A stretch of DNA of 64,000 nt, taken from NCBI RefSeq assembly GCF_044324875.1, contig NZ_CP172185.1; one strand, 5' to 3'. The notes under the pieces are model-generated. The model saw only the letters and a program-made list of their open reading frames with translations. It was not told the DNA's origin and did no database searches. Origin of the DNA: Escherichia coli (GTDB lineage Bacteria > Pseudomonadota > Gammaproteobacteria > Enterobacterales > Enterobacteriaceae). The translations under genes and the position numbers were made by a program. This document shows, piece after piece, positions 16,391 through 19,434 of this stretch. How positions within the stretch are numbered: the stretch's first letter is position 1; every line of letters begins with the position of its first letter.

Positions 16391-19240
16391 TTGAAATACC
16401 TTGCTTCTTTTCGTACAACCCTGAAAGCCTCGCGCTACATGTTCAGAGCATTGGCGTTAGTGCTCTGGCTGTTGATTGCTTTTTCATCCGTTTTTTACAT
16501 CGTTAATGCGTTACATCAGCGAGAATCGGAAATTCGTCAGGAATTTAATCTGAGTTCCGATCAGGCTCAGCGCTTTATTCAACGCACCTCTGATGTGATG
16601 AAAGAGCTGAAGTACATCGCCGAAAATCGCTTATCGGCAGAAAACGGTGTGCTTTCCCCGCGTGGACGAGAAACGCAGGCGGATGTGCCTGCGTTTGAAC
16701 CGCTGTTTGCCGACTCCGATTGTTCCGCAATGAGTAACACCTGGCGAGGCTCTCTGGAGTCATTGGCGTGGTTTATGCGCTACTGGCGCGATAATTTCTC
16801 TGCAGCTTACGATCTCAACCGGGTATTTTTAATCGGCAGCGATAACCTCTGCATGGCCAATTTCGGTCTGCGTGATATGCCAGTGGAACGCGATACCGCG
16901 TTGAAAGCGTTGCATGAACGCATCAATAAATATCGAAATGCACCACAAGATGATAGCGGCAGTAACCTCTACTGGATCAGCGAAGGTCCGCGCCCTGGCG
17001 TCGGGTATTTTTACGCGTTGACGCCAGTTTATCTGGCGAACCGGTTGCAGGCGCTTTTGGGTGTCGAGCAGACCATCCGGATGGAGAACTTTTTCTTACC
17101 TGGTACGTTGCCGATGGGGGTTACCATTCTTGATGAAAATGGTCATACCCTGATTTCGCTTACCGGACCAGAAAGCAAAATTAAGGGCGATCCTCGCTGG
17201 ATGCAGGAACGCTCCTGGTTTGGCTATACGGAAGGGTTCCGGGAGCTGGTGCTGAAGAAAAATCTGCCACCCTCATCGCTAAGCATCGTGTATTCGGTGC
17301 CGGTTGATAAGGTGCTGGAACGCATTCGCATGTTGATCCTTAACGCAATTTTGCTGAATGTGCTTGCCGGAGCTGCATTGTTTACTCTCGCGCGGATGTA
17401 CGAGCGGCGTATTTTCATTCCGGCGGAAAGCGACGCCTTGCGACTGGAAGAACATGAGCAGTTTAATCGCAAGATTGTCGCCTCCGCGCCAGTGGGTATC
17501 TGCATTTTGCGTACCGCTGATGGCGTCAATATTTTAAGTAACGAACTGGCGCATACCTATCTCAATATGCTTACGCATGAGGATCGCCAACGACTGACGC
17601 AAATTATCTGTGGGCAGCAGGTCAATTTTGTTGATGTCCTGACCAGCAACAATACCAATCTGCAAATCAGCTTCGTCCATTCGCGCTATCGTAATGAAAA
17701 CGTGGCCATTTGTGTGCTGGTGGATGTTTCTTCGCGCGTGAAGATGGAAGAGTCGTTGCAGGAGATGGCACAAGCAGCGGAACAGGCGAGCCAGTCAAAA
17801 TCGATGTTCCTTGCCACCGTCAGTCATGAGCTGCGAACGCCGCTGTATGGCATTATCGGTAACCTGGATCTGTTGCAAACCAAAGAGTTACCGAAAGGCG
17901 TCGATCGTCTGGTGACGGCAATGAACAACTCTTCCAGCCTGTTGTTGAAAATTATCAGCGATATTCTCGATTTCTCGAAGATTGAATCGGAACAGTTGAA
18001 GATCGAACCGCGTGAGTTTTCACCGCGTGAAGTGATGAACCACATCACCGCCAACTATTTACCGCTGGTGGTACGCAAGCAGTTAGGCTTGTACTGCTTT
18101 ATTGAACCGGATGTGCCAGTGGCCTTAAATGGCGACCCGATGCGTTTACAGCAGGTCATCTCCAACCTGTTGAGTAACGCCATAAAATTCACCGATACCG
18201 GCTGTATAGTTTTGCATGTTCGCACTGATGGCGATTATCTCTCTATCCGTGTTCGCGATACCGGCGTGGGGATTCCGGCGAAAGAAGTGGTGCGCTTGTT
18301 TGATCCCTTCTTCCAGGTCGGAACGGGCGTACAGCGTAACTTCCAGGGGACCGGTCTGGGTCTGGCGATTTGTGAAAAACTGATCAGCATGATGGACGGC
18401 GATATCTCGGTAGATTCAGAACCGGGAATGGGTAGCCAGTTTACCGTGCGTATTCCGTTGTACGGCGCTCAGTACCCGCAGAAAAAAGGCGTGGAAGGGT
18501 TGAGTGGTAAACGCTGCTGGCTGGCGGTCCGCAATGCGTCGCTCTGTCAGTTCCTGGAAACCAGTTTGCAGCGCAGCGGCATCGTCGTTACAACATACGA
18601 AGGGCAGGAACCGACTCCCGAAGATGTGTTAATCACTGACGAGGTAGTGAGCAAAAAATGGCAGGGTAGAGCGGTAGTGACCTTCTGTCGTCGCCATATT
18701 GGTATTCCGCTGGAGAAAGCGCCAGGAGAGTGGGTACACAGTGTGGCTGCTCCGCATGAGCTACCGGCATTGTTGGCGCGTATTTATTTGATCGAGATGG
18801 AGAGCGACGATCCTGCTAACGCTCTGCCGTCGACGGACAAAGCGGTCAGCGATAATGACGATATGATGATTCTGGTCGTGGATGATCATCCGATTAACCG
18901 ACGTCTGCTGGCAGATCAGTTGGGATCGTTGGGCTATCAATGTAAAACCGCGAATGATGGCGTCGATGCGCTTAATGTACTTAGCAAGAATCATATTGAT
19001 ATCGTGCTTAGCGACGTCAACATGCCAAATATGGATGGTTACCGCTTGACGCAACGCATTCGTCAGTTGGGACTGACGTTGCCGGTAATCGGAGTAACTG
19101 CTAATGCGTTGGCTGAAGAGAAGCAGCGGTGTCTGGAGTCTGGTATGGACAGCTGCCTGTCGAAGCCGGTAACGCTGGATGTGATAAAACAGACGCTAAC
19201 GGTATATGCCGAGAGGGTCAGGAAATCGCGGGAATCGTAG
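16391..19240 (+). CDS. rcsC: Hybrid sensor kinase RcsC
   Basis: 949 aa; H-box VSHELRTPL, ATP-binding G-boxes, C-terminal receiver (ILVVDDHPINRRL…D). Confidence 0.95.
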   Translation: MKYLASFRTTLKASRYMFRALALVLWLLIAFSSVFYIVNALHQRESEIRQEFNLSSDQAQRFIQRTSDVMKELKYIAENRLSAENGVLSPRGRETQADVPAFEPLFADSDCSAMSNTWRGSLESLAWFMRYWRDNFSAAYDLNRVFLIGSDNLCMANFGLRDMPVERDTALKALHERINKYRNAPQDDSGSNLYWISEGPRPGVGYFYALTPVYLANRLQALLGVEQTIRMENFFLPGTLPMGVTILDENGHTLISLTGPESKIKGDPRWMQERSWFGYTEGFRELVLKKNLPPSSLSIVYSVPVDKVLERIRMLILNAILLNVLAGAALFTLARMYERRIFIPAESDALRLEEHEQFNRKIVASAPVGICILRTADGVNILSNELAHTYLNMLTHEDRQRLTQIICGQQVNFVDVLTSNNTNLQISFVHSRYRNENVAICVLVDVSSRVKMEESLQEMAQAAEQASQSKSMFLATVSHELRTPLYGIIGNLDLLQTKELPKGVDRLVTAMNNSSSLLLKIISDILDFSKIESEQLKIEPREFSPREVMNHITANYLPLVVRKQLGLYCFIEPDVPVALNGDPMRLQQVISNLLSNAIKFTDTGCIVLHVRTDGDYLSIRVRDTGVGIPAKEVVRLFDPFFQVGTGVQRNFQGTGLGLAICEKLISMMDGDISVDSEPGMGSQFTVRIPLYGAQYPQKKGVEGLSGKRCWLAVRNASLCQFLETSLQRSGIVVTTYEGQEPTPEDVLITDEVVSKKWQGRAVVTFCRRHIGIPLEKAPGEWVHSVAAPHELPALLARIYLIEMESDDPANALPSTDKAVSDNDDMMILVVDDHPINRRLLADQLGSLGYQCKTANDGVDALNVLSKNHIDIVLSDVNMPNMDGYRLTQRIRQLGLTLPVIGVTANALAEEKQRCLESGMDSCLSKPVTLDVIKQTLTVYAERVRKSRES

Positions 19241-19434
19241 GCTGTATAAGACGTTTACGCCGCATCTGGCATTCAGTGCAAATGCCAGATGCGACGCTGG
19301 TGCGTCTTATCTGGCCTACTTTGTTGTAATCCATTGAAATAATGGGAATCGTAGGCCGGATAAGGCGTTTACGCCGCATCCGGCATTCAGTGCAAATGCC
19401 AGATGCGACGCTGACGCGTCTTATCTGGCCTACA
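19229..19434. repeat. Two tandem ~90-bp REP/BIME-type repeat units
   Basis: Direct repeat of gggaatcgtaggc…gacgctgRcgcgtcttatctggcctac (19229-19319 and 19344-19434), each with internal palindromes; first unit overlaps the rcsC stop. Confidence 0.8.

Follow-up and report, generated by a model that had tools for sequence, protein, structure and literature searches.

A tandemly duplicated BIME-2 element, known as REP162 in K-12, between the convergent rcsC and rcsB genes of Escherichia coli and its probable part in forming both transcript 3′ ends

The stretch of Escherichia coli DNA analysed here (hereafter the window) is 64,000 nucleotides of contig NZ_CP172185.1, and our subject is a repeated element that lies in it between two genes of the Rcs phosphorelay. 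The rcsC coding sequence runs from 16391 to 19240 on the plus strand and encodes 949 amino acids ending ...VRKSRES*, with NCBIfam NF008099 matching residues 1-948 of 949 at 1841 bits. On the minus strand, rcsB (19440-20090, stop codon 19440-19442) encodes 216 amino acids ending ...LSPADKD*; NCBIfam NF008098 matches residues 16-231 of the listed open reading frame at 467 bits, and a profile search places RcsD upstream of it. The two genes are convergent, and the 199 nt between them are filled by an element of four repetitive extragenic palindromic (REP) sequences. It is a bacterial interspersed mosaic element of the second class (BIME-2), named REP162 in K-12 under the EcoCyc numbering; it is already known and does not depart in kind from its family.

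A repeat finder returns one direct-repeat family, with copies at 19222-19319 and 19336-19433, each 98 nt long and with a start-to-start spacing of 114 nt. The copies are identical at 89 of 98 positions (91%; binomial P ~3e-43 at a 25% per-base match). In a pairwise alignment the homology extends from GAAAT (19222 and 19336) to exactly CCTAC (19319 and 19433), and the flanks are unrelated. Tandem Repeats Finder reports nothing at the locus because only ~1.9 copies, under two periods, are present. A preliminary description, made from the letters of the window, had placed two ~90-bp units of ~90% identity at 19229-19434, the first beginning about 12 nt before the rcsC stop at 19240. The duplication, its identity, and the overlap with rcsC all hold; the real left boundary lies 16 nt ahead of the first base of the stop codon. 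The repeats are real, and they belong to an ordinary, already catalogued E. coli intergenic repeat.

We typed the REPs with blastn-short against Y and Z2 consensus strings that agree with the consensus of the Rfam RF02564 model. Their order is Y, Z2, Y, Z2 in alternating orientation, giving two tandem units with a 114-bp period, each composed of a Y-type REP (GTAG), a 13-nt spacer, and a Z2-type REP (CTAC), the two REPs being mutually inverted. At its left end unit 1 carries a coding flank, the last 15 nt of rcsC before GTAG (19222-19236, plus strand, GAAATCGCGGGAATC). REP 1 (19237-19270, plus strand, GTAGGCTGTATAAGACGTTTACGCCGCATCTGGC) is a degenerate Y-type REP in the GTAG orientation that matches the Y consensus at 27 of 30 positions (19237-19266), and its Rfam alignment contains two non-canonical pairs. 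The short (S) head-to-head linker that follows, ATTCAGTGCAAAT (19271-19283), is the same in both units and corresponds by alignment to the 13-nt spacer in the naRNA4 model of Rfam. REP 2 (19284-19319, plus strand), recognised by a pattern match, is an inverted Z2-type REP that ends in CCTAC. A 31-nt tail-to-tail linker (19320-19350) joins the units; its first 16 nt (19320-19335, TTTGTTGTAATCCATT) are specific to the locus, and its last 15 nt (19336-19350, plus strand, GAAATAATGGGAATC) are a degraded copy of the rcsC 3′ end. REP 3 (19351-19384, plus strand) is a canonical Y-type REP in the GTAG orientation, identical to the Y consensus at 34 of 34 positions, and is placed by the Rfam alignment, as is the second S linker (19385-19397, again ATTCAGTGCAAAT). 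REP 4 (19398-19433, plus strand), an inverted Z2-type REP, closes the element. The two Z2 REPs match the Z2 consensus at 31/32 and 29/32 positions, the lower figure being that of REP 2. The feet of the palindromes are GTAG at 19237 and 19351 and CTAC at 19316-19319 and 19430-19433. With lengths of 34-36 nt, matches to the Y or Z2 consensus, and detected inverted-repeat arms, all four elements fit the definition of a REP palindrome.

The same units are recovered by Rfam RF02564 (naRNA4), a covariance model of a Y+Z2 REP pair that was built from the REP325 array and has a gathering score of 59.5 bits. Unit 1 matches at 19240-19316 on the plus strand (64.3 bits) and unit 2 at 19354-19430 on both strands (84.3 bits on the plus strand, 62.9 bits on the minus strand), each over model positions 1-77. 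Full-length matches above the gathering score could be taken to mean that processing of the units yields naRNA4-like RNAs which, together with HU, condense the chromosome, a nucleoid role having been proposed for REP325 (Qian et al. 2015). The model, however, simply describes a Y+Z2 REP pair. Moreover, REP325/naRNA4 produces no measurable nucleoid compaction and acts locally as an element of the 3′ untranslated region (UTR), being a partial terminator and mRNA stabiliser and no nucleoid organiser (Harris et al. 2026, bioRxiv 10.64898/2026.03.23.713779), and the rcsC-rcsB locus is not mentioned by Qian et al. 2015. We consider a nucleoid-associated RNA at this locus extremely improbable.

In the Gilson/Bachellier nomenclature, as summarised by Ton-Hoang et al. 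2012 (PMC3333891), a BIME-2 combines Y and Z2 REPs of inverse orientation across a short S linker; it recurs in tandem, the linkers that flank it are particular to the locus, and the number of copies differs between strains. Every sequence-level feature of this class is present here: both units read Y(GTAG), 13 nt, Z2(CTAC), the locus has alleles of one, two, and three units, and the linker is conserved at the locus. The spacer is 13 nt, and therefore a long L linker cannot fit. A 651-nt query that includes the element finds a median of 29 places per genome, an undercount, in 5,425 of 5,426 complete E. coli genomes, which identifies the REPs as high-copy, dispersed sequences. Elsewhere in the window, further REPs occur as a Z2 + Y cluster at ~31209-31309, with another long palindrome, GCCACATCCGGCATGGTATGCCGGATGTGGC, ahead of it, and as a single Y-like REP at 51432-51459.

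Membership in the BIME-2 class also raises a DNA-level reading, in which the element would be a transcription-independent site of DNA gyrase binding and cleavage that relieves positive supercoiling between the convergent units. BIME-2 elements hold an excess of gyrase cleavage sites, chiefly at Y-type REPs (Sutormin et al. 2019, PMC6379681), and this element has two Y REPs and sits between convergent genes. Against this, only a subset of BIME-2 elements is cleaved (PMC6379681), and both rcsC and rcsB are absent from the supplementary text of Sutormin et al. 2019; by analogy with other loci such a role may exist, and we rate it as rather improbable.

The rcsC gene ends ...AGG AAA TCG CGG GAA TCG TAG, and its stop codon (TAG, 19238-19240) takes up all but the first base of the GTAG in REP 1 (19237-19240). 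Of the four REPs, this GTAG alone reaches into rcsC, by the stop and the final base of the last Ser codon, and all four stems lie between the two stop codons. The REP 1 stem begins directly past the rcsC stop. At the other end, REP 4 finishes 6 nt short of the rcsB stop codon, and its stem in the rcsB mRNA begins 10 nt past UAA. The REPs are extragenic, the GTAG overlap being a marginal exception and no violation. The preliminary description had assigned the duplicated unit to the REP/BIME class, with REP-like palindromes in each copy, the last rcsC codons inside the repeat, and the whole between convergent rcsC and rcsB. The class agrees with the REP consensus matches and with Rfam RF02564, and NCBIfam confirms the genes. 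Two of these statements can be sharpened: each unit is a Y + Z2 pair, making a four-REP BIME-2 and not two single REPs, and the involvement of rcsC has two layers, since GTAG supplies the stop and, separately, 15 nt of coding sequence are copied into the linker.

The use of a REP as a stop codon is not unique to rcsC and recurs at other loci. In the ~270 kb of K-12 that we sampled, the stop codon of yafL, next to rayT, is the TAG of a Y-type REP GTAG, ...ATT TTG TAG|GACGGATAAGGCG (22459-22462 of the K-12 segment that holds it). A few single-member database entries for E. coli RcsC (P0089, P0032, P0041, and P0054) read through or shift frame into the BIME and carry REP-encoded tails, e.g. ...RKSRDSYGRIRRFTASAFEKCQIRH; they may be rare natural alleles with a lost stop or a frameshift, or else sequencing errors.

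Comparison with other enterobacteria indicates which part of this junction is ancestral. The outgroup gaps come from four other enterobacterial contigs, reached by protein search and contig look-ups; a scan of genome contigs with a degenerate rcsB 3′-end pattern returned a single locus, in Escherichia sp. MOD1-EC7003. RcsC of other enterobacterial genera ends ...YAERVRKxRx and then stops, and the E. coli protein, ending ...VRKSRES or ...VRKSRDS, is one residue longer. At the DNA level the four relatives end ...CGG GCA TAA, ...AGG ATA TAA, ...AGG GAA TAA, and ...AGA CAA TAA. Because ...VRKxRx* is conserved in other genera, the terminal GAAATCGCGGGAA of E. coli rcsC is ancestral coding sequence; derivation of the rcsC end from a BIME flank is ruled out, as ...VRKxR is conserved in genera that lack this BIME. 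A strong hairpin follows rcsC in at least three of the four relatives, and in two of them a terminator composed of an A-tract, a GGCCC stem, and U6 stands directly past the stop. The rcsC-rcsB gap of two relatives also holds REP-like palindromes of its own that differ from those of E. coli, GTAGGCCTGATAAGCGTAGCGCCATCAGGC in one and GTAGGCCGGGTAAGCGCGAGCGCCACCCGGC in the other, the latter next to an ordinary terminator hairpin; REPs seem to have entered the convergent gap on more than one occasion.

The two units resemble each other in more than their REP stems. Linker positions 19336-19350 match the rcsC end (19222-19236) at 12 of 15 positions (P ~1e-5); therefore the second unit, with GAAATAATGGGAATC in front of it, appears to be a copy of unit 1 together with its coding flank. 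Both units also have the identical 13-nt S linker and the same Z2 variant, GCCAGAT...ATCTGGC, whereas all other Z2 REPs in the ~270 kb of K-12 read GCCTGAT. The shared S linker, the shared Z2 variant, and the homology to the rcsC flank support local duplication rather than two separate insertions. The 31-nt linker was also considered as a shared BIME motif of the 'l' type, and this was ruled out: it occurs once per genome and shows no significant similarity to the phr-dtpD, gltP-yjcO, REP325, or tldD-yhdP linkers (best uncorrected p 0.02-0.06).

Two other K-12 arrays bear on how such linkers arise. In the tldD-yhdP BIME-2 array (27090-27400 of its own K-12 segment), the 15-nt tail-to-tail linker GGTTATGTTCCGTTT repeats the sequence past the last REP (GGTTATGTTCTGG...). 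This array likewise seems to have grown by duplication of a REP pair with its outer flank, and copying of the flank into the linker appears to be how such arrays grow. In REP325, the 17-nt linker GGAGGGT|GCGGGAATTT, next to GTAG, shares collinear exact blocks, GAGGGT and GCGGGAAT, with the rcsC 3′ end GAGAGGGT...GCGGGAATC (window 19204-19236), also next to GTAG. None of 50,000 linker shuffles reaches this likeness, but it was picked by eye among ~10 linkers, and REP325 has a Z2 and not a Y REP beside it; chance, a preferred sequence context, or the trace of a flank carried between loci could each account for it.

We propose from these comparisons that a REP pair landed at the rcsC stop in the Escherichia lineage, which would have lengthened RcsC by one residue (a Ser codon and a new TAG). 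The pair would have taken the place where relatives carry a hairpin-plus-U-tract terminator, and the unit, together with its coding flank, would then have been duplicated in place.

The number of units varies among strains, as emerged from the comparison across E. coli genomes that the preliminary description had suggested, in which the locus carries from one to three units. Among the 5,426 complete genomes, the 651-nt region finds a match along most of its length in 5,342, in every case where rcsC and rcsB are annotated, and 83 genomes lack a contiguous match to it. A 39-nt query centred on the linker is found in 4,436 of the genomes, normally once (4,471 places, at most three per genome). 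By this query two or more units are present in ~82% of genomes and a single unit in ~17-18%; arrays of three or more occur in at most 34 (~0.6%). Seven of 39 rows in an evenly spaced sample are one-unit alleles, in agreement with the ~17-18%. K-12 MG1655 has two units in the same 199-nt gap and aligns to the window without gaps. Strain CREC8 has one unit, its matched span being 114 nt shorter, as does the genome of another Escherichia species, in which the stop is likewise embedded in GTAG. Strain 14EC033 carries three clean 114-nt units in a 313-nt gap; of the three-unit alleles that came up with a three-unit query, for which two-unit genomes also pass 80% coverage, this is the one that was verified. 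The strict 114-nt steps point to events between the 114-bp repeats, either unequal homologous recombination or replication slippage, by which the unit number may still be shifting.

Variation within the units is uneven. The 16-nt linker segment differs between strains at 4-6 of 16 positions (TTTGTTGTAATCCATT in the window, TTTAATGTAATTTGTT in K-12, and TTTAATGTAATCTGTT in 14EC033), and the REP stems differ far less. The linker variant of the window is present at >=99% identity in 228 of the 4,436 genomes. In K-12 (2835-2870 of the segment that holds this gap) and in unit 3 of 14EC033, the Z2 REP next to rcsB is GCCAGATAAGACACTAACGCGTCTTATCTGGC, which differs from that of the window by four clustered substitutions (GATGCGACGCTGA -> GATAAGACACTAA). 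These substitutions remove the usual internal mismatch and leave a near-perfect 14-bp stem, and the variant looks like a templated 'correction' of a quasi-palindrome. The mismatch is required for TnpA-REP binding (Ton-Hoang et al. 2012, PMC3333891).

As RNA, the whole region folds far better than shuffled sequences on both strands (z -7.8 and -13.0). Both Z2 REPs form strong hairpins: that of REP 2 has a predicted energy of -22.8 kcal/mol (z -5.2), and that of REP 4, on the rcsB strand, -21.9 kcal/mol (z -3.7). We found no convincing intrinsic terminator in the E. coli gap; a consensus scan gave one weak match, which lies within a Z2 REP and has the tail CGTCTTATCT, a level that shuffled sequences also reach. 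The same scan missed obvious GGCCC...GGGCC+U6 hairpins in two relatives, and folding was used there instead. In the table of Ju et al. 2019, as reproduced in Table S16 of Harris et al. 2026, the 8-nt flanks of the REP hairpins hold 2-4 A and 3 U. The element is not an intrinsic terminator in the sense of a GC-rich hairpin followed directly by a U tract.

Transcripts have been mapped to end here in K-12. The preliminary description had pointed to 3′-end mapping of the rcsC and rcsB transcripts, and such data are published: in the K-12 SEnd-seq set (Ju et al. 2019, Supplementary Table 4, as given in Table S16 of Harris et al. 2026), REP162 has two sites at which bidirectional transcript ends overlap, one at NC_000913.3 2316832-2316874, seen in log as well as stationary phase, and the other at 2316942-2316985, seen in stationary phase. 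Both are labelled REP162 and Convergent in Table S16 of Harris et al. 2026. Through the gap-free alignment they map to window positions 19393-19435 (REP 4) and 19282-19325 (REP 2), that is, to both Z2 hairpins. More broadly, Harris et al. 2026 place ~60% of the REPs of E. coli between convergent genes and report elevated expression for gene pairs of this kind.

These observations suggest to us that the stable Z2 hairpins, once transcribed, serve as a shared 3′-end element of the rcsC and rcsDB transcripts, where they would stop or pause RNA polymerase and/or block 3′-to-5′ exonucleases. Such a role would explain why overlapping bidirectional ends fall at exactly the two Z2 hairpins in K-12. 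Given the mapped K-12 ends, the stable hairpins found here, and the disappearance of the relatives' terminator, a common 3′-end element is most likely what the Z2 hairpins are. The route of 3′-end formation would be either termination, Rho, or exonuclease trimming; REP162 is absent from the table of Rho-binding REPs in Harris et al. 2026. Taken as a whole, the explanation that this is the REP162 BIME-2, duplicated in place and acting as a shared 3′-end element, is one that we hold with good confidence.

Several points weigh against it. The function is read from SEnd-seq data obtained on K-12 and not on the window strain, and 3′ ends mapped at hairpins can be processing products instead of true termination sites. 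On average, mRNA half-lives are no longer for REP-terminated genes than for others, and the effects vary widely with context (Harris et al. 2026). The second unit is dispensable, as ~17-18% of genomes have a single unit. REP 1 as an isolated hairpin reaches -8.5 kcal/mol (z -0.32), which is no better than shuffles. Finally, the 16-nt linker segment at 19320-19335 has no copy elsewhere in the 64-kb window, no counterpart past the last unit, on the rcsB side, and no significant likeness to linkers at other BIME-2 loci, and simple tandem duplication does not explain it.

Some of these facts fit an alternative in which the element is selfish or neutral repeated DNA tolerated between gene ends, the mapped 3′ ends being by-products of any stable hairpin and the unit number drifting without consequence. 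The occurrence of one-, two-, and three-unit alleles in natural strains, the decay of REP 1 in the window strain, the variability of the 16-nt linker segment, and the average half-lives reported by Harris et al. 2026 would all be expected of such a passenger. However, conservation is far stronger in the REP stems than in the linker; the ordinary terminator of the relatives is gone, so that something must end both transcripts; and transcript ends, in the K-12 table as reproduced, do map at the hairpins. A purely neutral element is possible, and we think it unlikely.

The proximity of the hairpins to the two stop codons suggests a further effect, on translation. Where a REP lies <16 nt from a stop codon, ribosomes are reported to stall at termination and translation to be lowered (Liang, Rudd and Deutscher 2015, as summarised in PMC12306157). 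The hairpin that begins 10 nt past the rcsB stop is within this range and may, as a secondary effect, lower translation of RcsB, which by analogy is plausible. For rcsC a corresponding effect is doubtful here, since REP 1 of this strain is degenerate and alone folds no better than shuffles. In its full form this reading holds that REP hairpins <=15 nt from both stops stall ribosomes, with mRNA cleavage and trans-translation, and so keep RcsC and RcsB low. It draws on the REP 1 stem directly past the rcsC stop, the REP 4 stem 10 nt past the rcsB stop, and the distance rule as given in that summary, and it is opposed by the want of a stable REP 1 hairpin in this strain (z -0.32). We regard damping at both genes as a tentative proposal with the balance against it; it does not exclude a shared 3′-end element.

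A more far-reaching idea is that the unit number (1, 2, or 3) could act as a recombination-driven, heritable dial of 3′-end formation, mRNA stability, and termination-coupled translation of rcsC and rcsB. We give this little credence. If it were true, E. coli lineages would differ in the balance of the Rcs phosphorelay, and with it in envelope-stress and capsule responses, by REP copy number alone, and any effect of unit number on RcsC or RcsB levels would constitute a simple source of natural variation in a major envelope-stress pathway. As a discovery there is little new here, for REP162 is catalogued, BIME-2 elements were described in the 1990s, and the K-12 transcript ends have been mapped. 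The value of the locus is as a worked example of a REP GTAG that serves as the stop of a gene, of a BIME array that grew together with a 15-nt coding flank and so keeps a fossil of the rcsC end in its linker, and of a REP cluster at the position of an ordinary bidirectional terminator in related genera.

Other matches at the Rfam gathering level in the window are to the MicF small RNA upstream of rcsD (23091-23184, minus strand), a tRNA (48064-48137, minus strand), and an L25 ribosomal-protein leader (51853-51878, minus strand), all of which are expected in this part of the E. coli chromosome.

The closest known system is REP162 of K-12 itself, which has the same locus, the same 199-nt gap, and the same four-REP, two-unit layout, and is classed as 'Convergent' (Harris et al. 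2026, Table S16). The window differs from it in that REP 1 carries three stem-weakening substitutions and 6 of 16 positions of the 16-nt linker segment are changed; in K-12, the REP nearest rcsB is a near-perfect palindrome, GATAAGACACTAACGCG, and RcsC ends ...RDS where that of the window ends ...RES. Relative to the BIME-2 family, the window element is distinguished by a first-REP GTAG that overlaps a stop codon and by a linker that holds a 15-nt coding copy, neither of which is unique, as yafL and tldD-yhdP illustrate. REP325 (naRNA4), between yjdM and yjdN in K-12 (7743-8399 of its own K-12 segment), has the same unit of Y, 13-nt linker, and Z2, 77 nt in all and described by the same Rfam model. 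Its six units repeat every 100 nt, are joined tail-to-tail by a 17-nt linker, and have the common Z2 variant GCCTGAT, and the array stands between tandem genes of one operon; in REP162 the one to three units repeat every 114 nt, and the neighbouring genes are convergent. The role proposed for REP325, as a 3′UTR terminator and stabiliser, is the model that we have taken for REP162. Bidirectional intrinsic terminators between convergent genes occupy the same position and have presumably the same job as REP162; unlike them, REP162 presents hairpins that have no flanking A and U tracts.

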